Below, one piece after another: positions 6,735 through 36,167 of a stretch of DNA of 36,167 nucleotides. Source of the stretch: a virus (lineage: Duplodnaviria; Caudoviricetes); IMG/VR virus record IMGVR_UViG_3300030410_000026, positions 1-36,167 of that record, one strand, 5' to 3'. The notes under the pieces are model-generated. The model saw nothing but the letters and a program-made list of their open reading frames with translations. It made no database searches and was not told the origin of the DNA. The translations under genes were made by a program, and so were the position numbers. The first letter of the stretch is position 1; every line of letters begins with the position of its first letter.

Positions 6735-6995
6735 TCATTTTGAGGAACTGCCAGATAAAAAAGAATATTTCCTTTTTGTTGCTTCTCCACCTCGAATATT
6801 TCTAATTTCTTTATTATGCTCTGTTACTTTTCTAACTTCTAAATATAATTGTGGGTAACACTCTTGCAATTTCTTAGTCATGTGCTTATGAATTGCACTT
6901 TTAGAATAACCAAATTCCTTTGCTGCTTGTCTGATGGTTGCCTTGTTTTCTAAGATATATAATGCTTCTTTTTTAATTATTTCATTGTTACACAT
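6735..6995 (-). CDS. spoIIID: SpoIIID-like sporulation transcription factor
   Basis: YILENKATIRQAAKEFGYSKSAIHK...NKEIRNIRGGEATKRKY closely matches SpoIIID as I recall it. Confidence 0.9.
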   Translation of the reverse strand: MCNNEIIKKEALYILENKATIRQAAKEFGYSKSAIHKHMTKKLQECYPQLYLEVRKVTEHNKEIRNIRGGEATKRKYSFLSGSSSK

Positions 6996-11658: not shown

Positions 11659-12234
11659 TTATACTCCTTTTTCATATTTATTTTTTAATGTTTTACGTGA
11701 ATCTCTAAGTAGACTGCTAATATAACTCTGGCTCATTTCTAATTCTTCGCCTACTTCATATTGATTTTTCTCTCCGAAGTAAAATAGATTCAAAGCTTTT
11801 TTCTGGGTAGGTTTAAGATTGCTAATAATTGTCTTTAATTCTTTAATTGTGATATCATCTATAGACGTTTCTGCATAATCTTTTTCGTCACTTAAAGCAT
11901 CTTCTTGTTTTACAGAATGTCCATCGTTATTTATCCAGATGATATCTTCAAGACTTCTTTCGTTTTTAATCTTCTTTACTTTTCTCAAATACATTAGAAT
12001 TTCATTGTTGATTACAGTTGCGAGGAAGGTCATAAAAAAGTTACCAGTTTCAATTTTGTATGAATTAAAGGCTTTTACTAAACCAACGTTTGCAGATTGT
12101 ACTAATTCATCTATATCTTCACCAGTTTTTAAAAATCCCCAGGCAGTTTTAAAAATATACTTTTTAAATTGCTCATAAACTTCGTTACAATCCATTTCTC
12201 TTATTTCATCTTTCATTTTTATTAACTTTCTCAT
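11659..12234 (-). CDS. sigma-70 family sporulation-type sigma factor (sigE/sigK-like)
   Basis: DELVQSANVGLVKAFNSY, NNEILMYLRK (region 2.4 like SigE/SigK), QYEVGEELEMSQSYIS (region 4.2); start after GGGAGG. Confidence 0.85.
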   Translation of the reverse strand: MRKLIKMKDEIREMDCNEVYEQFKKYIFKTAWGFLKTGEDIDELVQSANVGLVKAFNSYKIETGNFFMTFLATVINNEILMYLRKVKKIKNERSLEDIIWINNDGHSVKQEDALSDEKDYAETSIDDITIKELKTIISNLKPTQKKALNLFYFGEKNQYEVGEELEMSQSYISSLLRDSRKTLKNKYEKGV

Positions 12235-12253
12235 GCTTTCCCTCCCTGTAGAA

Positions 12254-12520
12254 TTACTCTTCTGGCATTTCATAAACTAAGTAGTCTGCATCAAGTCTCT
12301 TAATATTCGTTACAAGGGTAGGCGCTGCTTTTAATAGTTCAATATTTTTTATCCTATCTTGAATTTCGTTTAATACTTCGGTTGCTCTTTCGCTATTTGG
12401 ATAGACACCCAACACTATAAAATCATCACCAGCAAATGTATAAATACCGCATCTGTCTGCTTGAACCCTATTGCAATTAATTAATTCTGTCTTATCTTGG
12501 CTTCTGATCCATATTCTCAT
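12254..12520 (-). CDS. hypothetical phage protein
   Basis: MRIWIRSQDK...LGVYPNSERATEVLNEI...YEMPEE, a recurrent Firmicutes phage family as I recall it. Confidence 0.7.
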   Translation of the reverse strand: MRIWIRSQDKTELINCNRVQADRCGIYTFAGDDFIVLGVYPNSERATEVLNEIQDRIKNIELLKAAPTLVTNIKRLDADYLVYEMPEE

Positions 12521-21306: not shown

Positions 21307-21335
21307 GTTATACCATCTTTGGTATACATTATAAA
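21307..21335 (-). promoter_or_regulatory. putative sigma-A promoter heading the small-gene array
   Basis: TTTATA-17-TATAAC with extended TG; overlaps inverted repeat TATACC/GGTATA. Confidence 0.5.
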
Positions 21336-21514
21336 GGGTAACAGTTTCCGTTACTGTGAGCTAGTTCCTTCAAAAATAGGATAAATCACCCTGCAATTAC
21401 CATATAGCCAAGCTTTAGGCGATATTAACAGTAACAGTTTTCGTTACTGCAATCCAATAAATTGATGGCTACAGTAACAGTTTTCGTTACTGTCAGTAAC
21501 AGTTTTCGTTACTG
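21336..21514. repeat. four 21-bp iterons with inverted arms, CAGTAAC-AGTTTTC-GTTACTG
   Basis: Exact copies at 21429, 21472 and 21494; variant at 21336. Confidence 0.9.
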
Positions 21515-21528
21515 TAAATAATTTTATA

Positions 21529-22022: not shown

Positions 22023-22085
22023 ATAATTAAAAGTAAATATATAATTCATCCGTTTGCCAGTGTGACCGCACTGGTTTTATTTTTT
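22023..22085 (+). ncRNA. predicted antisense (copy-control) RNA
   Basis: Plus-strand TTGTAT-16-TATACT with extended TG at 21989-22016; CCAGTG/CACTGG hairpin plus T run at 22057-22085; ends approximate. Confidence 0.55.
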
Positions 22086-22238
22086 GCCATCAATCCACTT
22101 ATTCACCTCATCAGCATCGAACCTTACAAGCTTACCAAGTTTCTTAAAAGGTAATCCTTCCTTCCTCCACCTTTCTACTGTTTGCCTTGATACGTTTAAA
22201 TTCTTGGCTACATCATTAGTTGTTAATAACTCATACAT
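22077..22238 (-). CDS. 53-aa excisionase/MerR-like HTH protein (Cop-like)
   Basis: Read by hand: LLTTNDVAKNLNVSRQTVERWRKEGLPFKKLGKLVRFDADEVNKWI; AGGAG RBS; TTGCAA-17-TACTAT upstream. Confidence 0.8.
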   Translation of the reverse strand: MYELLTTNDVAKNLNVSRQTVERWRKEGLPFKKLGKLVRFDADEVNKWIDGKK

Positions 22239-22391
22239 ATAATCACTCCTTATAAACGCATAGTATCACAACGTATACAATGTTGCAATACTATTTCCAA
22301 TGTTCCAACTATTAAACCTTGATTTTATTTGCTTTTTCTATAAATTTGAAATATGGAACTCTTTAATACTCAATTATTAAACTATTTTAAA

Positions 22392-22424
22392 AATAATACT
22401 TTAATAATACTTTAATAATACTTT
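22392..22424. repeat. 3 x 11-bp tandem repeat AATAATACTTT
   Basis: Three exact units; related GTAATACT units at 22990 and 23001. Confidence 0.8.
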
Positions 22425-22428
22425 GGTA

Positions 22429-22968
22429 TTACTTCTTATATTTTGTATAGAACTCGAAAATAGCTAAACTCATTAAGTCTTGTCTTTTTATACCACTGTA
22501 ACTACTACATAACAAATCAAACAATTTATAAATAGGCTCATACACTTTTATAGATTTGGCTGTAATAGTTGTCTGTAATTCCAATGGCAGCGTGTTAATA
22601 TCGAGCTGAGGTATGTCGATTACATTAATATTACTTTTGTAATACTTTAGCATTTCTAATATATCTTCTTTGTGTTCTATGAGTTCCGAAATGTCGTCAT
22701 ACTTTTGTAATTCTATAGTATTACTATAACTTACAGGTGCTCTCCTGGGGCTGATTTGATAAGGTTGTATTACTAAAGTAGTATCTTTGGCATACTGCTT
22801 TGTAATAGCGTTAAAGACATACCCAACCTTTAAAAATCTCTCTCTAACTGTACTTCGACTTATCCCGATCGAGATACATATTGTCGTTAAAGTTTGTGCT
22901 ATTAAATTGCTATTCATATACTCTATTTGTTCATCAATCCCCATGTTGTCAAATTCAAATTTATTCAT
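22429..22968 (-). CDS. plasmid-type DNA-binding protein (HTH plus RHH-like), partition candidate
   Basis: TLTTICISIGISRSTVRERF HTH; C-terminal SIKVY...QDLMSLAIFEF; flanked by TAATAC repeats. Confidence 0.6.
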   Translation of the reverse strand: MNKFEFDNMGIDEQIEYMNSNLIAQTLTTICISIGISRSTVRERFLKVGYVFNAITKQYAKDTTLVIQPYQISPRRAPVSYSNTIELQKYDDISELIEHKEDILEMLKYYKSNINVIDIPQLDINTLPLELQTTITAKSIKVYEPIYKLFDLLCSSYSGIKRQDLMSLAIFEFYTKYKK

Positions 22969-23152
22969 TTTATTTCCCCCTTTTTATTTGTAATACTAAA
23001 GTAATACTTTTATATTACCACGCTATTGGCTTATATGTAAATGAAGAATAGAATGAAATTGCAAGTAAGGTAATGCCTTACAAAAACATGATCAGTGAAC
23101 CCACACTATAAAAGGGAATTTTATTTTAAAAGGCCTGGGATAGAATACATTC

Positions 23153-25519
23153 TTAGCCTTTTTTGTTGCATAAAAAAAGAAGCTTGTTAGGCTCCTTAAA
23201 GGGTAGTTTAGATATAAAACTTGCATAGCCACGAGAATAATAGATTAGATTTAGAGAATTAAACTTTTCCATATCTCTTAAATCTTCAAACTCAAACCCT
23301 ATTAATTTGTTTTCATATCGCTTAAAGTCCTTTTCGCTTGTGCCTGTCATAAACATAAAACTTGCCCCTGCCCCTTCTAATGTATCTATTAATATATCAA
23401 TCTGCCCTGTGTATTGGCATGATAAAATAAACTTGCAACCAAACTTTCTTGTCTGCGGAAGAATTTCATCATCACTAAGCATTTGCATAGCTGTTTTCGT
23501 TTGAAAGATTTCATCAATACATATATGGGTAGGCTTAGGCTGTTTATTCCATTTACCTCTTATCTCTGTAGCAATCCATATTTTAGAGAGTAAAAAAGTA
23601 GTTATAACATTCTTAGAGTGCTTTTTAAAAGCATCTTGTGGCATACGCACAATTATAATTTTGCCCTTTTCAAGTTCTTCGGCAAAATCAATATTACCTT
23701 GTGAACCCCGGTTAAACATATACTTTAATTTAAAATCCTCCCTTAATAAGCTTATTCTATCTAGTATACTGTCTATGTGGTCTATTTTAGTGCCTATTAC
23801 ATACGCTGTAGGCTCTTTAGCAGTTATCTTAGAGTATTCGTCTATGTCATGCAAACCTTTAACCTCGTCCTCTAAAAACGTTGCTTCGTCTATAGTCAAT
23901 TTATTAATATATGCTTCTCTTACCTGAAAATCTTCTAAGCATCTTACAACTTCTTTTAAACTACTTTCCCCTGTGGCGAATACTACATTGGCTGCGGCAC
24001 TTAAATATTTCCGCATACGAGATTGTAATGGTTGTTCGGGATTTATGCTATCTACAAAAGTTAATACTTGCTGTGCTTGACGATTAGTCAACTCTAATTT
24101 ATCAAAAGTGTTCATATTAGGATCTATTTTATATTCATTAAAAGCGAATCCCTGTATGCACTCTGGTTTAGTATAATCTAAAACGATAACATCTTCTTTA
24201 GGCAAATAGTTAATTACTTCTTGCGACATTTCACAATTTTTAATAAAATCTATTATTACGCCTCCCTCTTTTCGAGTATTTACAAACCTATAGTAATTAG
24301 CCATAAAGGTACTTTTGCCACTCCCTTGTGAACCATTTAGTATAAGAGGCAAACTCCCCTTATCATATTTATCTTCTAAATAAGCTTCTTGCCTATCTCC
24401 CTTGCACTTAACTGTACCTAAGGATATATAACCATGGTCTAATTCTTTAGGTACCTGAACTTCGTTAACTTCTGTATGTTTTATCCCTAAACTTCTCATT
24501 AAGTTTCGTCCTGGTTGGCTAATAAAGTTTTGGCACTCGTCCATGCTAAAAGTATTTTCATCTACGTTTTTAAATTTATAGTCCTCTACATCAATAATTC
24601 CATTCGGTTTTACCTTTTTGGATATTAGTTCATTGTCCTCGTCTAAAATTCTAAAAGCTTGGCAAACTACCTGTGCATTATTTTCTTGCCTCGTTTTATC
24701 TACGCTATTAGTAGCAATCATTATTTGTGCATCTATTACAGTGGCTTCTTTTTTCATATTCGTAGAATTACTCAATCTTTTATTAACCTCTAAAATATTT
24801 GAGGTAACAAGCAACTCGCTAAAAACTGTATTAATCTTTTCTTCACTCCCTGTGAAATCTTGGAATACTTTTAAAATACTATTAAAAATATAATTCATAA
24901 AACTTAAAACTGATTTTATTAAGTATTCAGGAGTTTTTTTATCCTTTACGATTATTTGCATATCCTCTATTTTCTTTCGAGTATCAGAATATTTCTTTTG
25001 CCAATTAAACTGTGACTTAGGTAAAAAATTATAAATTAGTGTTACCCTATCATCATCTCTCATTATCTCCATTACTGCTAGGATTGAGTTTAAAGGTTCG
25101 TTACTTTTACGGTCCACTTGCAAACTTAAAGCATCTTCTTTTTTATAATTAAGCTGATAATAAATAGTATTAGTGTTAAAAGATTCTAACTTAGGGACTA
25201 TATTTAATTCTACCTTGCTCCATATTTCTCTAATCTTTTCAATTATGATATTTAAGTAAACTTCGGGTGCAATAAAATAAAAGCTAGTATCTGTTTTCTT
25301 AATGTCTATAACATAGCTTATCTTAAAATTTGTTTCAAAGAAAAGCTTCTTTTGCTCTACCTTTATACGCCTGCTAATTGACTTGTAAGCGTGTTGAATT
25401 GCTTTGACTATATTAGTGCTATTATAGTTTCTCGTTGCCTTATGGGGTGTTATTTGGAGATATACGTACTTTGGCTTAATTAACTGAAAGTATTTATTAA
25501 CTGGCATAGAAATACTCAT
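23153..25519 (-). CDS. VirB4/VirD4/FtsK-HerA superfamily P-loop ATPase
   Basis: GSQGSGKST, VIIDF, HICIDE, RKFG..ILSCQY. Confidence 0.8.
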   Translation of the reverse strand: MSISMPVNKYFQLIKPKYVYLQITPHKATRNYNSTNIVKAIQHAYKSISRRIKVEQKKLFFETNFKISYVIDIKKTDTSFYFIAPEVYLNIIIEKIREIWSKVELNIVPKLESFNTNTIYYQLNYKKEDALSLQVDRKSNEPLNSILAVMEIMRDDDRVTLIYNFLPKSQFNWQKKYSDTRKKIEDMQIIVKDKKTPEYLIKSVLSFMNYIFNSILKVFQDFTGSEEKINTVFSELLVTSNILEVNKRLSNSTNMKKEATVIDAQIMIATNSVDKTRQENNAQVVCQAFRILDEDNELISKKVKPNGIIDVEDYKFKNVDENTFSMDECQNFISQPGRNLMRSLGIKHTEVNEVQVPKELDHGYISLGTVKCKGDRQEAYLEDKYDKGSLPLILNGSQGSGKSTFMANYYRFVNTRKEGGVIIDFIKNCEMSQEVINYLPKEDVIVLDYTKPECIQGFAFNEYKIDPNMNTFDKLELTNRQAQQVLTFVDSINPEQPLQSRMRKYLSAAANVVFATGESSLKEVVRCLEDFQVREAYINKLTIDEATFLEDEVKGLHDIDEYSKITAKEPTAYVIGTKIDHIDSILDRISLLREDFKLKYMFNRGSQGNIDFAEELEKGKIIIVRMPQDAFKKHSKNVITTFLLSKIWIATEIRGKWNKQPKPTHICIDEIFQTKTAMQMLSDDEILPQTRKFGCKFILSCQYTGQIDILIDTLEGAGASFMFMTGTSEKDFKRYENKLIGFEFEDLRDMEKFNSLNLIYYSRGYASFISKLPFKEPNKLLFLCNKKG

Positions 25520-25707
25520 TTGAAAGCACTCCCTAACATTTTTATTAGTGCATATACGGCTATACTCGCAGGAGCATACTTAGCACACCTTTTAAACCCT
25601 ATTGCATAAAATATTAATGAGAATAAAGCTACTGATAAACATACCCAGTAAGATAAGCTACTTATATTTTGCTTAACATAATCTATTGTTTTAAATAAAG
25701 TGACCAT
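25516..25707 (-). CDS. small two-helix membrane protein
   Basis: 63 aa, hydrophobic, ATGA-coupled to the ATPase. Confidence 0.75.
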   Translation of the reverse strand: MVTLFKTIDYVKQNISSLSYWVCLSVALFSLIFYAIGFKRCAKYAPASIAVYALIKMLGSAFK

Positions 25708-25715
25708 AATACCTC

Positions 25716-26099
25716 CTAAAACGAATCTTTAATAGCGTTGAACAAACTAGGGACTAAATACATTGCAGCGAATACAAGTAAATATTTCATTATTATGCTT
25801 AGAATTTTTTTAGAATCTCCGCCAGCTCCGGCGCGAATAGTTTCTACTAAGCACATAATTAATAAGATCCAATATCCCCAACCGCGGATTAAGTTTAAAA
25901 GTGTTCCACCAAGATTATCAATTCCTTTGCCAGCAGCATAAGTTTTTTGTGCATTAAATAATATAGCTAAAAATAATATCGTTGCTTTTTCTGTTGTTTT
26001 TACCATTATGTTACTTGTATAATTTCTAATGTTTTTCCCTCTTTCTAATTGTAAAAATTCAGGAATACTCATTACAGGTTTATAAAAATAATTTGTCAT
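25716..26099 (-). CDS. TrbC/VirB2 pilin-like membrane protein
   Basis: Leader ending TYA-A, then two hydrophobic helices separated by GDSKK. Confidence 0.6.
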   Translation of the reverse strand: MTNYFYKPVMSIPEFLQLERGKNIRNYTSNIMVKTTEKATILFLAILFNAQKTYAAGKGIDNLGGTLLNLIRGWGYWILLIMCLVETIRAGAGGDSKKILSIIMKYLLVFAAMYLVPSLFNAIKDSF

Positions 26100-26158
26100 A
26101 AATTCCCTCCGAATAATTTCTAAAGAAATGGTTATACTATTTGTTAGAGGTGATTATA

Positions 26159-26221
26159 ATGTTATTTGCAATAAGTTTATTCGTCGCAGGTCTTTATATA
26201 TTTGCTAAAATTGTTGAGTAA
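26159..26221 (+). CDS. 20-aa hydrophobic peptide MLFAISLFVAGLYIFAKIVE
   Basis: AGAGGTGA RBS; GAATA...GGTTATACTA promoter-like element upstream. Confidence 0.45.
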   Translation: MLFAISLFVAGLYIFAKIVE

Positions 26222-26327
26222 TCAAATATGAATTACTTGTTAAATATAATAAAATGTAGCACTTTTTTGACTTTGCTGGCATATCTTACTGTACAGACGT
26301 AGCGCAGCAGGAAGCGCAGTAAAGAGT

Positions 26328-26360
26328 GGTTATTTTCCTTCGGGAAGGTAGCCTATTTTT
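26328..26360 (+). terminator. plus-strand terminator with a cUUCGg loop
   Basis: GGTTATTTTCC-TTCG-GGAAGGTAGCC-TATTTTT; the G-U pairs work only on the plus strand. Confidence 0.7.
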
Positions 26361-26502
26361 ATGATCTGCTTTTTTGTATAAATGATATATAATGTTGGAG
26401 TGCTTCTTTTATAAAAGCTGACTTATCGGTATGCCTTAAAACCTCGGTATATATTTTTATTTCCTCAATGTTTTCCTTAAAGCTTACATTTACTTTTGGC
26501 AT
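26359..26502 (-). CDS. 47-aa ribbon-helix-helix-like protein
   Basis: Read by hand: MPKVNVSFKEN...DKSAFIKEALQHY; AAAGGAG RBS. Confidence 0.65.
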   Translation of the reverse strand: MPKVNVSFKENIEEIKIYTEVLRHTDKSAFIKEALQHYISFIQKSRS

Positions 26503-26575
26503 ATGCACTACTCCTTTCTAATTACTTTAATATCTATATATGCAGTAATGCTCAAAATAGTTCCTAAATTTAAGC

Positions 26576-26610
26576 AAAAAAAATAAAGGCAACCAATTAA
26601 GGCTACCTTT
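26576..26610 (-). terminator. terminator after the lysis module
   Basis: AAAGGTAGCC/GGTTGCCTTT plus T run on the minus strand. Confidence 0.65.
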
Positions 26611-28761: not shown

Positions 28762-31700
28762 TTATTTATTGTATGGATTAATTGGGATAGCCTTAGTTGA
28801 AGGTTTAGCGTACTTTTTAGGCACGTACTTAGATTGCTCAACTAAAGGTTCTAGTAGTTTTCTTTGTTCTGCAAGGGATAAATTACTATGTGTAATATTG
28901 GTTACTTTCCTTCTAAATAAAGTAGATTCTTTAGAAATATTATCCTTTAAGTTTGCAGAAATTAATGTAGTAAATTGTGTAGTTGGCATCGATAGTCCTT
29001 GTGCTTGTGTTTGTAAATCTTTTAATTGTAATTTCCTATCATTAATATCCTCAACATTTTTGTAAATATCCTCTGCTTTCTTTCTTAAAGCTGTGGCTTC
29101 ATCGCTCCCATTAGAACTTATTGCTTCTGCCTGGGATATTAACTGTGCTGCTTTTAAATCATCTTTCCCTTTAAGTTTAGCAGCTTCATCTCTTAAAGCT
29201 TTTTCTTTGATTGGATCCCCACTTAAAATTTTACCTATCTGATCTTTAGTATAAGATGAGGATTCGTAATTATCACCGTTCATAGCAGCATTTGTTTCAT
29301 TAGCAACATTAAGTATCTTTTGTCTAAGTTCTCTAATTTTAGTTTGGTCGTTTCCAGCTTCTTTTATTTGTTGGTTATAACCTGATATCGCACTAATCGC
29401 CTCTGTAAACATTCCTTTATGGATTTCTTCTATCGTTAATTCTTTTCCAGGAATATTTTCAAGTTTATTTTTATCGGAACTCGCTTTTGAGATTGCATCA
29501 TAGTTCTCATATAAATCTGTTAGTCCTTGGTTGTTATATAATGAATCTGTGATAAATTTTGAAGTGAATGGGGATGTCAAAACCTCTCCAATGGTTTTAC
29601 CTTGCGTTATCGCTTTTGTATCAAGTGGTTGACCAAATTGTGCGAATACCCCCGTATAACTGTAAACTATATAATCAAATTGTTTTGGGGATAAGTCTAT
29701 ACCGAATTTGTGTAAAAACTCTGCTATTGCCTTAGCTGTTTCGGTAGATTTCTCATCAAATTGTAGATATTTTGAGCCACCACTCATGACCATACTTTGA
29801 GGGACTATATTCCTTCCAGCGAAGTCTTTGTTACCACCCATGGCTATATTAGCAAGAGGTGTCCAAATACCACTTGTTAATGGGTCGAAAAGGAAATTAG
29901 TTAACACAGTGTTAGAAAAGCCTTTAAAAGGGTTCAATTTACCTTCGTTTAATCTTACAAGTCTTTCTGCCAAACTTCCAAATAACACGCCAAATTCACG
30001 TTGTTTTGGCAACCTGATAAATTTTATGCAATACCCATCAGAATCTTTAGGACCCCAAGGATTAGGAAAATTCAAATAAGTATCTTTAACTCTATTATCT
30101 AAGCTTTGGTAGTGTGGGTTATCTTTGTTTACAAGATCCAACAAAAGCGTAGTTGCCGTAATAGCAGCTAATCCTTTAAGTATGGTTTTAAGTGCTGTTC
30201 CAGGGTGTAAAGGGTTGAGTTGTCTAAATACCTTATCAACACCCTGGACAGCAGGATTTAAATAAGGAGAAAAGGAATCTATAGCTTTTGTTATCGCTCC
30301 ATACCTGGCAAAATTCGTGCTAACCTCTGCTGCATTATAAATACCTTGCATTTTGCTCGCATAAGTTCTGCCACCCTTTTTAATTGTAGCCAGGTATTCT
30401 GCGAAACGGGGCACGCTCTCGGTCACGTTATTTAAAGTTCCAAGTGCATCGCTTGCCATTGCAAATTTACTTTTACCGTGTATTATTTGTTTACTATATT
30501 TTTCAAGTTTTTTTGCATCGCTTGCTACGAAATTAGAATGTTCCCCACCTAATGATTTATATTCTTGCCAATCTTTGGCATTACTTATTATTTTGGCAAA
30601 TGCTTCAGCTAATTTTTCAGTGTGCGTCAATGGGCTAACCATAACAACTGAGTTAATATATGAATCCGGAGCATCACGGCTAGCATTAGAAAGTGCGAAT
30701 AGAGGGTTTTTACCCGTTACAACAGATTTAAAAGGACCCGTTACTGATCTAGCTATTTTTTCTACAAGTCCTGTTTCTGAATCTATTAGCCCTCTAAATT
30801 CCTTTAACATTTCTTTGTCGTTAAATTGTATGTCTATAGGCTCTCCTTTTATCATTACCGTAACTATATTATCTGTGTTTTTATGTGTCATTGTTCTATC
30901 GAATTGATCGCCTAAAGTATCTGCAAGCCCTTCAATCCCATCTTCTGATAAGGTTTTATTAATTTCGTCTATTACTGCTTGCCTTGTTGGAACTATTTCA
31001 GCTTTAGACTTCATAGCTTCGGGATTCTTCAAGAGTGTTTCATATAAAGCAACGCCTACTTCATTATTACGTGTCGCTACAACAATTTTTTTAATCATTT
31101 TAACATAACTCTCGAGTGGATCAATAATGTCCTTTGATGATCCTATTGCCTTTTTTATTATGTTACCTTGATTTATGAAACTCTTTTTAGCACTTCCTAC
31201 GCCAGGCTTATTGTCGCTTCTGTAAGTTGGCATATAATGAGGGTACATTTCTTTAAGTGTAGCCATTGTTTCAGGACTAACCATATTCCCATCTACAGCC
31301 CATGCTTGCATAAATTTATCCCAAAAATCTCTATTTTCTTTTGCTTGCTTAGCTAGTTCAGGATATTTATTATTATAAAAATCTACTACTTGTTTTGACA
31401 TAGCCGAAGTATAATCTTTATCAAATACAGGTTTTTGAATTATAACATCGGTTGTCTTTCCATCTTTAGTGACTTGTGTTTTAATATTCATTCTGTCAAT
31501 GTTATGCTGATGAGCCATATAATCATACAATAGCTTATCATAAGTTATAGCATTTCCTTTAAAATCAGTCACTCTTTTCTTAGGTAGCTTTCTATATATA
31601 TCTTGTAATGATTTACCAATATTTTCTCCACCCATATTCGCTAAGTTCTCTTCTATAATCTTTTCTGCCTGGCTTATTGCGTTTACTGCGTTCATGGACA

Positions 31701-34700
31701 TTATTTTGATATTGAAGTTTGCAGGCATATTCTTTGCAAGTGAACTTGCCATAGCAGTGTAATGCAAATGATTAACAAATAGCTTATATGTTTTATGCAA
31801 TATATTTAATGGAGTTTCTTTCTGATACCCCGACACAAATTTTTGAGAAGTTCTTGGCAACTCGTCAAACGGTACTGCCTTTTCTGGTTCTTTAGGAATT
31901 GCAGCCTTAATAGCTGCTTTTTCTAATTTAGCTGCATTGTTTTTAGTATCGCTAAGAATCAGTCGCTGCCTATTTGTTTTATATTCTGATAACAATTGTT
32001 CGAGTTGTGTCGTGCTATAAGGGTTATCGCTAATATTTGTTAAGTATTTTGATTGAAGCGTATCGAGTGACTTTTGGACATCTGGATTATACTTTGAAGT
32101 ATCTTCTTTGACGCTAATAGCTTTTATAACTTGATTTGCGAAAGAGTTTCTATCCTCTAGTTTTACAGGGAAAGCCGTTCCTTTATCTCTCCAAGATTCA
32201 TTATCATTAGAAATAACATCTGTTACGATATTTTGTGAAACTAAATATTTTAATGTAGGTGTATTCATATCGTCTGTTACAATTAATGAACTTATTGATC
32301 CAAACTCTCTCATTCTTCCGCGCAAGTAATCGGTAGCTTTGTTTTTATCATTAAAAACACCGTTAGGGACTTCTTGGATTGCCCTAACTTTCAATTTTGC
32401 ATCTACAAATAAAATAACTTTAGTATTTTTAGTAAGTTGTAATTGTTTTGCTATTTCTGCAAATTTAGTACCACTTGTAATTTTTTGGCCGAGTAAATCA
32501 TTCTCTATTGCAGGAACTAATAATAAGTCTTTACCTAAATTCAGATTTTCTGTAGACACCTGACCGTTATAGCCTATTAAAGCAAATTTATTAGAATTGA
32601 TAACTACGTGTCCTTTGTACCCATTAACACTATGTTTATACTTTAAACTAATATTAATATCTTCTCTACTTGGGGTAGGATCTCCACTTGGATGATTGTG
32701 AAGTAAATAGTAACCGTCTGCTCCTAACCTTGCCATTCTATTTTTCATATCTTTAAATGCGGTATCAGCATCTTTTGAAAATACTTTAACTACATCAGGA
32801 ACTCTCGACGTAATTCCTTCATGCCCTACTATTGTGTCGCCTTTCATATATACGATTCTAAAGGTTTCATAACGTGGATCACGAAATACTTGTGCTACAG
32901 TTGCTACTTCTGCTGGTGAATGAACTATTCTATCTCTTAGGTCAACCCACCCTCTATGAACTAATTGTGCGTTTATAGCTAACCCTTTAATACCTTGTGC
33001 TACGTAATTATTCTTTCCTCTGGCGCTTTGTATATTGTTGTTTTCTTCGGTTTTTTTGAGGTCTTTGTTTGCTTGGATTGTGATTTCTTTGACATTGGGT
33101 TTCCCCTCCTTTAATTTTAAGTTATCAGTTATCCCGTATTGTTTTAATTGGTTTTGCCATCTTTCTTGGCTCGTTCCGTCTGCTGTAACAGGTAATTTGC
33201 TTAACCAATGTTTACTCCAATCATAAGATTTGCCTACGTCAAACCCCTTGTAGTCGTCTTTAACCCATATCCATTTATGATGCCATATTGACTTACTTGT
33301 GTTTGTTTTTGCAATTGCACCATTTGGACTAACCCAAGTTATCTTACCAGGAATAGGTTCCCTTGCTGTATTAAAATCTGGAGATTCGTCAAATCTTACT
33401 CTTTTAGTTTTTGGATCATAAACTAATGAATTGAAATTATAAAATTGATTAGAATTTTTAAAACTATTTAAAGCATCTTGGTAAACTTCTTTAGGAATAA
33501 CATTTGTCGCATAGTCTTTGCTAACATATATTTGACCGCCAATATCTTTACCTACACCATATTTAGAACGTTTTATTATGCTACCTTTTAATGTCTTTAA
33601 TTTCTTCTCTTCAAATATGCCGTAAGGTTTAATACCTTCTTGTACCTTTAGATTATCACTTTTAACCCCTTCTGCAATGATTAGATTGCCCTTTTGAGTA
33701 ACATTTTTAAAATATTGTGAAATTTCAGGAATATATTTCTTAGTTTTGGAATTATTTTGCCAACCTTTAGAAGTTTCTACACCAATGTTCGTTCCGTTGC
33801 CTTCATAAATAAGGAAATATGCCTTGCCATTAGATTTTAATACATTTGCTGCGTTGGCTATAGCCTGTTCTCTTGCATCTATTTCATTAATCACATTTAG
33901 GACATTGTTAATTGTTGCTGTATCTACTTGACCGTTTTCAATATGCCTAATTGAATTTTGATTGAACTCTTCATTACGGTTATATGGATCATAAATATAA
34001 TTAGCAACTCCTTGTGCTTTTAGATATTCGGTTGCATTATCAAACTTTCCCCCACCTATGTCTGCATTAACTGTATTAGGTTCAAACTTTACTCTATTAA
34101 ATGTTGCGGGTAATTTTGAAGCATTAATTGATGTATTCGCCGATGAAATCTTTTGCTGTGGTCCGTTAAATGGAGTTTTATTCTCTAAAAGTATGTTTGG
34201 ATCGCTAGGGTTAAATTCTCCGTTATTTCCTGTCGCTGATTTAATTTGGTTAGGGTTAAAAGCTACATATATTCTTTCACTATGTTGTTTAATGAAATCT
34301 GTTTTATCTAAATATCCAGTTATGTTTTCACCGTTAGCATAGTTATAATCTAACCCTCCATTTTCTTTGTTTTTAACTATTTGATACTGTGTGCCTCTAT
34401 TGGAAGTATAAGTATACTCACCTTTTTTATCAAATTCCCTCCAATCTATTTTTGGTGCATCTTGATGTATAACACCATCATACCCCATTTTTTGAAGTTC
34501 TAATCTTGTAATGTCTGCATATGACATACCACCCGATAAATTATAATTTTCGTAGTTGTTATAAATAGTTTTAGCGACTTCATTAGCCACCTTAATAGGA
34601 GCAGGGTTTTTTATAGCTAAATAGTAGCTCTTAACGTATTTAGGGTCTTCCCATGCAGGAGATGCGTATGATTCATCAGAATTAAACCAAAATCCATTAT

Positions 34701-36167
34701 ATTTCGCATCCGTTTCATCATGTCTTATTTTTGATATGTCGAATGTATTAAAGTCCTCAAGTGATCCATGGAACACTACTAAGGGCTTTCCGTTTTTACC
34801 CACAATTTTACTACCATTAAACCATCTTTTAAACTGTGGTGTGTCTGTTTGTGAAGTAGAATTATACTTTGTAACTGCTTCATTGACTGTATCTGGATAA
34901 AACTTGCTAACAATACTTTTACCCGAGTGTTCAGCAGCGTTAGTTATCTTTCTCTGCCATGCGTTATTATTTGAAGGTGAATAATGCCATCCTTCTGCTT
35001 TTAAAGCTTTTGTTGTTTCAGGCGAAGGCTTTACATCAAAGAATATCTGCGTTCTATCTACACCATAGTTATTAATGATTTTAGCACCATCATAACTAGC
35101 AATATCTTTACTACTTTTAGGCGTTTCTACTTGTTTAACATTATCCTGGGACAAATATTTGATTGCTCTTGTCATGCTTGTTGTTACTTTTTTATCCCAA
35201 TCCAAAAACTCAACCGTTCTATTATGTTCAGTTTCCATTCTTTTCTGATTTCTTGCTACTGGGAAATTAGCAGGTCCGGTTATCCCTGCTGACATAGTTC
35301 TTGCTTTCGCTGAAAGTATTGCATTATATCTTTTCAAATATCCTTCTTTATACATATCCATTTGTTTTAACAATTCTGTTTTCTGAATATCAGTTTTAGC
35401 AAGAGGTAGCAATTTATTATACATTTCAGTCATAGCTTTAACATAATTATCTTGCTCTGATTTAGCTCTTTTTTCAGGGTCAAAACTAATTGCACGGTAA
35501 GCTTCGTTCGCTAATTTATAACTTAAATCATCCTTAGATACAGTACTTAGCCAATCTTTAGAAGTAATTTTAACCTGTTCCTCTTTTCCTTTTAATATAG
35601 CTTTTTTCCTTACTTCTTGCTTTTTAGTTAGAGATAACCCATCAGCTTCCATTTTCCCATAATCTTTTAATATATTTTCTCGTTGTTCTTTTGACCTTTC
35701 TTTATATTTTGCAGCCCAATCTTTAGATGGTTCAGCTTTAGTAATAGCAACTTCTTTAGTCGCTTCTACTGGTTTAGCTTCTACTTTAGGTGGTTCTGTT
35801 TTAGCAACTTCTTTAGTCGCTTCTACTTTTTTTGTCCCTTCTGTTGTTTCTTTTGGATTGCTAATCTCTTTTGCTCCCCGAATGTCTTGGCGTCCCTTGC
35901 TAATGTCATTGCTATGTCTATTTTCTGCCCGTTGGTCATTATTATTACCCCCCAATAAATTTGTTTGGTTTGAATCGGCTACTGCTTTTATATAATTATT
36001 ACCTTCTGCATACTTAATTATTTCGTTTCCTGCCTCTGTGACTGCCATATTTAAAGACATTCCCTCTCTGCCTATCTTCTCTGCATATTTATCTAAAATA
36101 GCATTGATTGGATCTCCACTCTTATTCTTACCTTTATCAATAATTTCTACTGCCATTGATAGGATTA
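28762..36167 (-). CDS. giant polyvalent protein (>2464 aa, probably 5'-truncated)
   Basis: Frame open to the window edge; ART-PolyVal-like, SAM-MTase, JAB/MPN (HNHPSGDPTPSRED) and LPD38-like motifs. Confidence 0.85.
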   Translation of the reverse strand, partial: ILSMAVEIIDKGKNKSGDPINAILDKYAEKIGREGMSLNMAVTEAGNEIIKYAEGNNYIKAVADSNQTNLLGGNNNDQRAENRHSNDISKGRQDIRGAKEISNPKETTEGTKKVEATKEVAKTEPPKVEAKPVEATKEVAITKAEPSKDWAAKYKERSKEQRENILKDYGKMEADGLSLTKKQEVRKKAILKGKEEQVKITSKDWLSTVSKDDLSYKLANEAYRAISFDPEKRAKSEQDNYVKAMTEMYNKLLPLAKTDIQKTELLKQMDMYKEGYLKRYNAILSAKARTMSAGITGPANFPVARNQKRMETEHNRTVEFLDWDKKVTTSMTRAIKYLSQDNVKQVETPKSSKDIASYDGAKIINNYGVDRTQIFFDVKPSPETTKALKAEGWHYSPSNNNAWQRKITNAAEHSGKSIVSKFYPDTVNEAVTKYNSTSQTDTPQFKRWFNGSKIVGKNGKPLVVFHGSLEDFNTFDISKIRHDETDAKYNGFWFNSDESYASPAWEDPKYVKSYYLAIKNPAPIKVANEVAKTIYNNYENYNLSGGMSYADITRLELQKMGYDGVIHQDAPKIDWREFDKKGEYTYTSNRGTQYQIVKNKENGGLDYNYANGENITGYLDKTDFIKQHSERIYVAFNPNQIKSATGNNGEFNPSDPNILLENKTPFNGPQQKISSANTSINASKLPATFNRVKFEPNTVNADIGGGKFDNATEYLKAQGVANYIYDPYNRNEEFNQNSIRHIENGQVDTATINNVLNVINEIDAREQAIANAANVLKSNGKAYFLIYEGNGTNIGVETSKGWQNNSKTKKYIPEISQYFKNVTQKGNLIIAEGVKSDNLKVQEGIKPYGIFEEKKLKTLKGSIIKRSKYGVGKDIGGQIYVSKDYATNVIPKEVYQDALNSFKNSNQFYNFNSLVYDPKTKRVRFDESPDFNTAREPIPGKITWVSPNGAIAKTNTSKSIWHHKWIWVKDDYKGFDVGKSYDWSKHWLSKLPVTADGTSQERWQNQLKQYGITDNLKLKEGKPNVKEITIQANKDLKKTEENNNIQSARGKNNYVAQGIKGLAINAQLVHRGWVDLRDRIVHSPAEVATVAQVFRDPRYETFRIVYMKGDTIVGHEGITSRVPDVVKVFSKDADTAFKDMKNRMARLGADGYYLLHNHPSGDPTPSREDINISLKYKHSVNGYKGHVVINSNKFALIGYNGQVSTENLNLGKDLLLVPAIENDLLGQKITSGTKFAEIAKQLQLTKNTKVILFVDAKLKVRAIQEVPNGVFNDKNKATDYLRGRMREFGSISSLIVTDDMNTPTLKYLVSQNIVTDVISNDNESWRDKGTAFPVKLEDRNSFANQVIKAISVKEDTSKYNPDVQKSLDTLQSKYLTNISDNPYSTTQLEQLLSEYKTNRQRLILSDTKNNAAKLEKAAIKAAIPKEPEKAVPFDELPRTSQKFVSGYQKETPLNILHKTYKLFVNHLHYTAMASSLAKNMPANFNIKIMSMNAVNAISQAEKIIEENLANMGGENIGKSLQDIYRKLPKKRVTDFKGNAITYDKLLYDYMAHQHNIDRMNIKTQVTKDGKTTDVIIQKPVFDKDYTSAMSKQVVDFYNNKYPELAKQAKENRDFWDKFMQAWAVDGNMVSPETMATLKEMYPHYMPTYRSDNKPGVGSAKKSFINQGNIIKKAIGSSKDIIDPLESYVKMIKKIVVATRNNEVGVALYETLLKNPEAMKSKAEIVPTRQAVIDEINKTLSEDGIEGLADTLGDQFDRTMTHKNTDNIVTVMIKGEPIDIQFNDKEMLKEFRGLIDSETGLVEKIARSVTGPFKSVVTGKNPLFALSNASRDAPDSYINSVVMVSPLTHTEKLAEAFAKIISNAKDWQEYKSLGGEHSNFVASDAKKLEKYSKQIIHGKSKFAMASDALGTLNNVTESVPRFAEYLATIKKGGRTYASKMQGIYNAAEVSTNFARYGAITKAIDSFSPYLNPAVQGVDKVFRQLNPLHPGTALKTILKGLAAITATTLLLDLVNKDNPHYQSLDNRVKDTYLNFPNPWGPKDSDGYCIKFIRLPKQREFGVLFGSLAERLVRLNEGKLNPFKGFSNTVLTNFLFDPLTSGIWTPLANIAMGGNKDFAGRNIVPQSMVMSGGSKYLQFDEKSTETAKAIAEFLHKFGIDLSPKQFDYIVYSYTGVFAQFGQPLDTKAITQGKTIGEVLTSPFTSKFITDSLYNNQGLTDLYENYDAISKASSDKNKLENIPGKELTIEEIHKGMFTEAISAISGYNQQIKEAGNDQTKIRELRQKILNVANETNAAMNGDNYESSSYTKDQIGKILSGDPIKEKALRDEAAKLKGKDDLKAAQLISQAEAISSNGSDEATALRKKAEDIYKNVEDINDRKLQLKDLQTQAQGLSMPTTQFTTLISANLKDNISKESTLFRRKVTNITHSNLSLAEQRKLLEPLVEQSKYVPKKYAKPSTKAIPINPYNK

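Follow-up and report, generated by a model that had tools for sequence, protein, structure and literature searches.

What a phage gains from a short operon for a pilin-like protein, a membrane protein of 63 amino acids (aa) and a large ATPase is the question raised by the Caudoviricetes record IMGVR_UViG_3300030410_000026. The window analysed here, that is the whole stretch of 36,167 bases, covers part of a ~64.5-kb element (the longest contig has 64,557 bases; other records have 45,248 and 19,293 bases), of which about 28 kb lie outside it. The phage host is likely a Clostridium, since the nearest named ATPases are those of Clostridium tagluense, C. lacusfryxellense and C. estertheticum (65-73% identity). 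A preliminary description of this DNA had listed four genes, for a ribbon-helix-helix (RHH) protein, a VirB2/TrbC-like protein, the 63-aa protein and a 788-aa ATPase, and all four are present as described and at the same position. Moreover, a divergent open reading frame (ORF) of 20 aa and a conserved hairpin unit, which that description had missed, lie within the same interval. Our answer, offered tentatively and with slightly less than even confidence, is that this cassette is a minimal translocator, made in the mother cell, which moves the element's DNA into the forespore, and that the peptide encoded by the divergent ORF marks forespores already occupied.

The 788-aa ATPase contains a Walker A motif at residues 396-403 and a Walker B motif at residues 665-670, and shows no hydrophobic segment in a Kyte-Doolittle window. 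In its AlphaFold model (mean predicted local distance difference test score, pLDDT, 86.6), the N-terminal domain appears to be of the VirB4 type, without membrane anchor, and the C-terminal RecA-like domain displays the helical insertion and Walker motifs that define VirB4 proteins. The best Foldseek matches are to R388 TrwK/VirB4 over the whole length, and the nine highest rows, with alignments of about 900 columns, are all type IV secretion chains of R388. In the VIA ranking, VirB4 from T. pseudethanolicus (4ag5) comes first (Z 27.1, root mean square deviation (rmsd) 3.8, 337 residues aligned), with DndH (Z 25.6), TrwB (23.6), HerA (23.2) and FtsK (15.5) as further matches. TrwK and the model align over 542 residues (13 to 777) with an rmsd of 11.4 and a Z of 15.6, the domain arrangement being different. 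At the sequence level, the ATPase passes none of the curated VirB4 models, its best Pfam match (TrwB_AAD_bind, E 0.007) lies under the cut-off, and neither NCBIfam nor a PDB sequence search returns a match. The preliminary description had called it a VirB4/FtsK-type ATPase. The VirB4 part agrees with the top Z score and with the full-length Foldseek matches; the FtsK/SpoIIIE part is not supported, as there is no FtsK match in Pfam and no membrane segment, the shared core alone aligns (210 residues), and the Z of 15.5 against 27.1 for VirB4 speaks against an FtsK/SpoIIIE translocase. By its predicted structure, the protein is thus a VirB4-type motor and not a SpoIIIE-type one.

The partners of the ATPase were compared across 84 gathered loci, of which 53 were kept (pilin gene present, ATPase below 90% identity). 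An RHH homologue lies upstream in 70 of the 84 fetched loci, and the gene order is conserved. The 127-aa protein displays, in the alignment and in its model, a leader with a near-invariant Ala55 at the likely cleavage site, followed by a hydrophobic helical hairpin (helices 60-92 and 96-126); a presumably cleaved leader and two hydrophobic helices are the anatomy of TrbC/VirB2 pilins. Family links are indirect: two of the 53 pilin relatives match PF04956 (TrbC) weakly, with a best E of 0.012; an Atlas cluster set at 0.91 has TrbC on 14% of its members; and the gene before the ATPase on plasmid pNPD7 is annotated TrbC/VirB2. Fold searches with the model gave generic helical hairpins and no clear TrbC/VirB2 match, and a PDB search with the pilin profile gave nothing meaningful. 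As the 127-aa protein itself has no Pfam match, support for the earlier VirB2/TrbC-like label is indirect. The 63-aa membrane protein belongs to no family, and 7 of its 47 aligned relatives carry an N-terminal M23 peptidase domain with intact zinc-binding motifs. The RHH label of the 47-aa protein rests on its sequence pattern and on linkage to ParM, and the RHH profile matches SPP1 gp31 (E 3e-5). Around the RHH promoter of loci L068, L075 and L078, short iterated repeats form candidate ParR-type binding sites.

Part of the evidence for a link with sporulation comes from the non-coding DNA. In 37 of the 53 non-redundant loci (50 of 70 distinct loci), a hydrophobic ORF of 17-30 aa, equipped with its own ribosome-binding site, diverges from the pilin gene. 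Ahead of it, the motif GWATA-N14/15-GGNHAWAMTA occurs with at most one mismatch in 26/53 loci, 11 of them exact; in one of the 26 (L060) it precedes a longer ORF instead of the peptide. The same pattern is found in 0/53 loci on the module strand, in 9/2650 shuffles and in 7/490 other intergenic upstream regions, and the copy in the window is the sole exact match there on both strands. The ATPases of motif carriers are 36-87% identical (median 46). The -35 GWATA, the 14-15 base spacer and the G-rich extended -10 are features of sigmaF/sigmaG promoters, and mapped C. difficile promoters of these factors listed in Table S6, such as those of spoIIR and spoVT, share this form (Saujet 2013, PMC3789822). 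The motif is thus a predicted sigmaF/sigmaG-type, that is forespore-type, promoter. The patterns used are short forms read from mapped C. difficile promoter tables, cruder than a weight matrix. Because the pattern was written after the training loci had been seen, held-out loci were tested: of 18 new metagenome loci, 3 identical to training loci, 2 without a pilin match and 1 at a contig edge were dropped, and 7 of the remaining 12 have the motif. Furthermore, it occurs in the Geobacillus phages GBK2, D6E and TP-84 with 0, 1 and 2 mismatches respectively, and on C. sporogenes and C. beijerinckii plasmids that are either non-phage or unassigned. In SPP1 and 0105phi7-2, the peptide and the -10 are present and the -35 is poor, and the Thermoactinomyces and Alicyclobacillus plasmids are without the motif. 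Among the loci of a phylum sample, the divergent short ORF is present in L124 and L125 and absent from L126; the motif has two mismatches in L125 and, in L124, is missing from this position.

At the operon head stands a weaker motif, of the type predicted to be read in the other compartment. A sigmaK-type motif (-35 AC or ATA, spacer of 16-17, -10 CATANNNT) is exact in 9 of 45 operon heads, against 3/389 controls and 6/1350 shuffles, and a sigmaA motif with at most one mismatch is present in 0/45 heads against 21/389 controls. A sigma-70 scan of the window was at chance (39 versus 37.3). The operon-head motif resembles the mapped C. difficile promoters of Table S7 (Saujet 2013, PMC3789822), and sigmaE and sigmaK are described as mother-cell factors with recognition conserved in clostridia (Eichenberger 2004, PMC517825). 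In SPP1, gene 31 is preceded by an exact sigmaE-type motif behind a terminator-like hairpin. Together with the spore-forming hosts of the phages, described below, these compartment-type motifs support the link to sporulation proposed in the preliminary description.

Between the peptide ORF and the RHH gene lies a unit of about 100 bases that consists of a sigmaE/K-type motif, a hairpin and a terminator. Its motif is present with at most one mismatch in 35/37 loci, compared with 279/1110 shuffles and 7/37 on the opposite strand. The stem was analysed on 21 of the 32 extracted copies, after exclusion of longer or poorly delimited ones; pairing in the six-pair stem reaches 91%, and two-sided changes number 21, a value reached in 0/500 shuffles and far above slid controls. 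In this set the -10 is invariant by construction, and counts of this kind can be raised by relatedness among the sequences. The unit may be a DNA signal or part of a longer peptide transcript and not a small RNA, because the stem starts within the -10 and uses one G-U pair in all. Rfam gives 0 matches in the window, hairpin unit included, and the window's own hairpin folded as DNA is not better than shuffles (z -0.71). In SPP1, GBK2 and PBC1 the unit lies on the module strand. A type I toxin-antitoxin pair of peptide and hairpin unit is ruled out by their location on the same strand, the lack of overlap and the module-strand copies in these three phages.

What the cassette handles is suggested by its neighbours in relatives. 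A gene for a ParM-type actin lies directly upstream of the RHH gene in 20/53 loci, all 20 confirmed by Pfam ALP_N, and in this position the RHH family is ParR-like. SPO1 and CP-51 have ParM within the operon, and in D6E it precedes the operon. In SPO1, genes 29.1-27.3 (L118 1783-7840) form an operon that runs against all neighbouring lytic genes and joins a pilin-like gene, ParM, a ParR-like gene, three small membrane genes, the ATPase and Replic_Relax. In the window, no ParM gene stands beside the RHH gene and no ParMRC system is recognised there. The ParM/ParR linkage in these loci and in SPO1 and CP-51, along with the lack of channel proteins beyond the two small ones, would suit a tether and not a pump. 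In this reading the RHH protein, ParM and a membrane-bound ATPase would hold the phage DNA at the pole or at the polar septum, ready to be trapped in the forespore when the cell divides or to be passed through the host SpoIIIE. We consider this improbable, because motifs of the sigmaE/K type are read after septation in both B. subtilis and C. difficile according to the published regulons (PMC517825, PMC3789822), and because the pilin-like gene is kept in versions without ParM, the window included.

In SPO1L1, CP-51 and PBC2, the ATPase is followed by a gene for Replic_Relax, which matches 67 phage records, all of Bacillus; Replic_Relax is present in SPO1-, Tsamsa- and G-like phages. The DNA-handling context claimed in the preliminary description is thus supported in relatives, by ParM/ParR and Replic_Relax in the same operon. 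Replic_Relax in large phages, the pilin-like subunit and the active-looking M23 fusions are also what a transfer through the cell wall would need, and the hairpin unit might act as a signal for transfer or priming. This raises an escape from the doomed mother cell, in which the machine, switched on in the mother cell, would send the element's DNA outward to neighbours, as a sporulation-timed conjugation, with the peptide as exclusion factor of the spore lineage. Such an outward route appears unlikely, if worth keeping in mind: no coupling protein or VirB6/VirB8 is seen in the loci read, a C. sporogenes plasmid typed with an MPF_T mating system carries the module separately, and a forespore promoter would be odd for exclusion between cells.

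The hosts named for phages with the module are endospore formers, one record apart. Phage records retrieved by three tblastn queries are named for spore formers or D6E in 111/111, 106/107 and 131/131 cases, the exception being one Microcystis record; the host genera are Bacillus, Geobacillus, Lysinibacillus, Brevibacillus, Alicyclobacillus, Clostridium and Terrisporobacter, plus phage D6E. Streptococcus, Listeria and Enterococcus phages are within reach of such a search: with the window's RecT as control, the 645 records found include 97 of Streptococcus, 15 of Listeria and 11 of Enterococcus. Of the plasmid records, 55/58 come from spore-forming Bacillota, and the three archaeal ones match 20-45% of the query. 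On one Alicyclobacillus plasmid, a gene for an H-type small acid-soluble spore protein (L123 12814-12987) lies near the module. In a phylum sample, the ATPase is present in 4/401 genomes (one being the centre of the search), all four with spoIVA; this co-occurrence is uninformative because 327/401 genomes have spoIVA. A PF13814 search of five source genomes gave no match and is likewise uninformative, its controls being silent too.

The carriers include lytic phages (SPP1, SPO1, CP-51), integrating prophages and plain plasmids. A serine-recombinase motif lies at most 0.7 kb downstream in 6/53 loci, a tyrosine-recombinase motif is nearby in 6 more, and a recombinase is annotated beside the ATPase in D6E, PBC2 and MMB025. 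The module is therefore not restricted to extrachromosomal, integrase-less prophages, as had been proposed. Integrating prophages and plasmids as carriers would be compatible with a poison-antidote or checkpoint function, in which the mother-cell machine would either export a protein or make the forespore permeable, and the protective peptide would be made in element-holding forespores only, element-free spores being aborted. The opposite-compartment motifs of machine and peptide fit this, as does the fact that most versions of the module have no DNA-processing enzyme. Yet the operon contains no conserved effector gene, and ParM/ParR and Replic_Relax point to DNA; we judge this function distinctly unlikely.

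In the transport into the forespore that we favour, sigmaE/sigmaK would transcribe the operon in the mother cell, as predicted from its motifs, and the pilin-like and 63-aa proteins would form a channel in the engulfing membranes, with M23, where present, opening the septal wall. The RHH protein would bind the element's DNA and pass it to ParM or to the motor, with a nicking helper where the operon includes one. A copy already present in the forespore would make the peptide from its sigmaF/G promoter, as an entry exclusion, and the antisense transcript from the peptide promoter could keep the pump off in the forespore. The spore would thereby carry the phage, which would otherwise be lost when the mother cell lyses. 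We infer the direction and substrate of transport from the fold, gene order, hosts, promoter motifs and accessory genes in relatives. The narrower form, an intracellular conjugation machine in which a three-protein type IV core in the mother cell injects DNA into the engulfed forespore and the forespore peptide serves as entry exclusion, is a possibility that we hold with somewhat more reserve.

Several observations weigh against transport into the forespore. VirB4 in canonical systems is an assembly ATPase and not a DNA pump. No relaxase, coupling protein or VirB6/VirB8 was found in the 36-kb window (Pfam on 30 ORFs, and a 4-sequence Replic_Relax profile for the relaxase), so that the earlier statement of a missing relaxase holds for these 36,167 bases and not for the rest of the ~64.5-kb element; with the same four-protein profile, Replic_Relax was found in no clostridial locus among the 124 searched. 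Integrating prophages carry the module although a chromosomal copy reaches the spore anyway. The forespore motif has more than one mismatch in 27/53 loci, and was not found next to the start of the pilin gene in SPO1, CP-51, SP10, LysYB1, PBC1, PBC2, MMB025 and YungSlug. The operon-head signal is modest (23/45 against 42/389 with at most one mismatch), and among the promoter counts the held-out ones alone are free of the bias due to patterns written after the fact. Finally, the phage's own SigK/SigE-like sigma factor could read the sigmaK/E motifs, and SPP1 genes 31-32 are treated as early genes by Godinho et al. (Godinho 2018, PMC6316719).

These last two points would favour a lytic-cycle or vegetative membrane function, such as superinfection exclusion or host takeover, transcribed by the sporulation-like sigma factor of the phage, with an incidental link to spores. 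For SPO1, sigK-like promoters have been proposed as a target of a phage sigma factor, still unconfirmed in that report (Schwartz 2022, 10.1101/2021.11.12.468384). We regard such a function as very unlikely: the same motifs are found on plasmids and in the small phages SPP1 and GBK2, motifs for two different sigma classes face opposite ways, the operon heads carry no sigmaA motifs, and no phage of a non-sporulating Firmicute was found with the module.

The features of the module are listed in Table 1. The four module ORFs all lie on the minus strand, flanked by amidase/holin-like genes and by the genes for 179-aa and 149-aa proteins with their repeats.

Table 1. Features of the cassette and its flank, with positions in the window.
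Feature	Position	Strand	Evidence
788-aa ATPase, VirB4-type in its predicted structure, SPP1 gp32 homologue, no membrane anchor	23153..25519	-	structure model, Foldseek, tblastn
63-aa membrane protein, position of SPP1 gp31.2	25516..25707	-	stop codon overlaps ATPase start; alignment
127-aa pilin-like protein, position of SPP1 gp31.1	25716..26099	-	alignment, model helices
Predicted forespore-type (sigmaF/sigmaG) promoter motif GAATA-N14-GGTTATACTA, divergent from pilin gene	26111..26139	+	pattern scan
20-aa hydrophobic ORF, unannotated, strong ribosome-binding site, antisense to module	26159..26221	+	ORF conservation
Conserved non-coding unit: sigmaK/E-type motif (26259-26287), covarying hairpin, intrinsic terminator (26328-26353)	26259..26360	+	
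47-aa RHH-like protein (from ATG behind ribosome-binding site)	26359..26502	-	PHROG 18533, unnamed
Predicted mother-cell-type (sigmaK) promoter motif ahead of the operon, with one mismatch in the window	26535..26563	-	pattern scan
Terminator between operon-head motif and lysis genes	26585-26610		

The window holds the left arm, the lysis genes and one giant gene of the phage, and encodes RecT, YqaJ, DnaB, SSB, a SigK/SigE-like sigma factor, SpoIIID, an amidase and a 2464-aa polyvalent protein. Mother-cell-type regulators are thus represented by a phage sigma factor closest to SigK/SigE and by a SpoIIID homologue (11659-12273; 6735-6995, minus strand). The polyvalent protein (28762-36156, minus strand), directly upstream of the lysis genes, contains ART-PolyVal, RadC/JAB, methyltransferase-like and LPD38 domains. 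Four iteron-like repeats lie downstream of the 149-aa winged-helix ORF, and repeats with a period of 11 bases flank the 179-aa ORF (PHROG 2727), in regions 21327-21517 and 22374-23027; this part of the window may plausibly be a replicon. An excisionase-like helix-turn-helix gene (22077-22238) lies between the two regions, and no integrase was found in the window. Many viral contigs (among loci L006-L084) end less than 1 kb past the stop codon of the ATPase, which suggests that the module is often located at the prophage edge. The ATPase is broken in pieces in phage phiCp-D, in one viral contig and in a C. akagii locus (L002 19974-22389, L005 and L020), and the module can therefore decay.

Transport into the forespore, if true, would explain how phages get trapped in spores. 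SPO1 forms virospores, and Magalie et al. described a translocation from mother cell to forespore and singled out the ParM gene 27.9 (Magalie 2026, PMC12991052); the accessible text of that paper names no transport machine. Gene 27.9 sits inside the module operon of SPO1. CP-51 is cited as persisting through sporulation in the YungSlug paper (PMC12474458). If the narrower form of our proposal is true, the cassette would be the first dedicated element-encoded device for virospore formation, common to SPP1, SPO1, CP-51 and clostridial phage-plasmids. Transport into the forespore, if true, would also put type IV secretion to a new use, across two compartments within a single cell, and would explain the long-term persistence of lytic phages and plasmids in spore banks. 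Moreover, the compartment-type motifs make an orphan cassette of two model phages, SPP1 and SPO1, testable in B. subtilis.

Among the closest known systems is that of SPP1, a lytic Bacillus phage; the window probably belongs to a Clostridium phage. SPP1 gp32 is a homologous ATPase (22.5% identity over 78% of the query, tblastn E 9e-10, residues 10-627), also found by the ATPase profile, and gp31, gp31.1, gp31.2 and gp32 follow the order RHH, pilin-like, membrane gene, ATPase seen in the window. SPP1 also has the divergent short ORF and a sigmaE-type motif. Godinho et al. have proposed that gp32 with gp31.1/31.2 forms a trans-membrane translocon with similarity to TrwB/VirB4/FtsK, leaving its role open, and have reported genes 31.2 and 32 as non-essential (Godinho 2018, PMC6316719). 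The cassette is therefore not new; in its accessible text, the SPP1 paper gives no role, substrate, sporulation link, divergent ORF or promoter motifs. The operons of SPO1 (29.1-27.3) and CP-51 (gp97-gp90) share the ATPase family, the pilin-like first gene and the small membrane genes, and differ in the added ParM (27.9), ParR-like gene and Replic_Relax (27.3), and in the forespore motif, which is not found at the matching place.

With the VirB4 proteins of R388 and T. pseudethanolicus, the ATPase shares the predicted two-domain fold, and the order pilin-like, small membrane protein, ATPase is that of virB2-virB3-virB4. Compared with conjugative type IV secretion, the window is without VirB6, VirB8, coupling protein and relaxase, identity is below 17%, and the promoter motifs are of sporulation type. 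Archaeal Ced DNA import (CedA, CedA1/A2, CedB) moves DNA with relaxase-free pilin-like proteins and a VirB4/HerA-type ATPase; it is chromosomal, induced by DNA damage, and includes the polytopic VirB6-like CedA. Ced and the cassette could thus be compared as similar minimal sets, CedA being without counterpart in the latter. SpoIIIE/FtsK belongs to the same ATPase superfamily as the module motor and to a different subfamily (Z 15.5, 210 residues aligned). In phage Wbeta, wp20-wp23 (L117 3424-5769), a cassette of FtsK/SpoIIIE and replication initiation, occupies the same post-lysin slot and is possibly an analogous device; sporulation promoter motifs were not found before wp20. A scan of the window with the parS motif gave no parS-like site with fewer than 3 mismatches and one strict 0A box, and was unremarkable. 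In phi29, entrapment of the phage genome in the spore has been attributed to parS and Spo0A boxes (PMC12991052); phi29 uses host segregation sites, whereas the phage of the window encodes its own motor. In the open-licence literature, a search for a described function of the cassette found nothing beyond Godinho 2018 and general entrapment papers, and the sporulation wiring, peptide and hairpin unit were not found in print. The cassette is known and its role unexplained, and our work adds to it the peptide ORF with its forespore motif, the operon-head motif and the hairpin unit.

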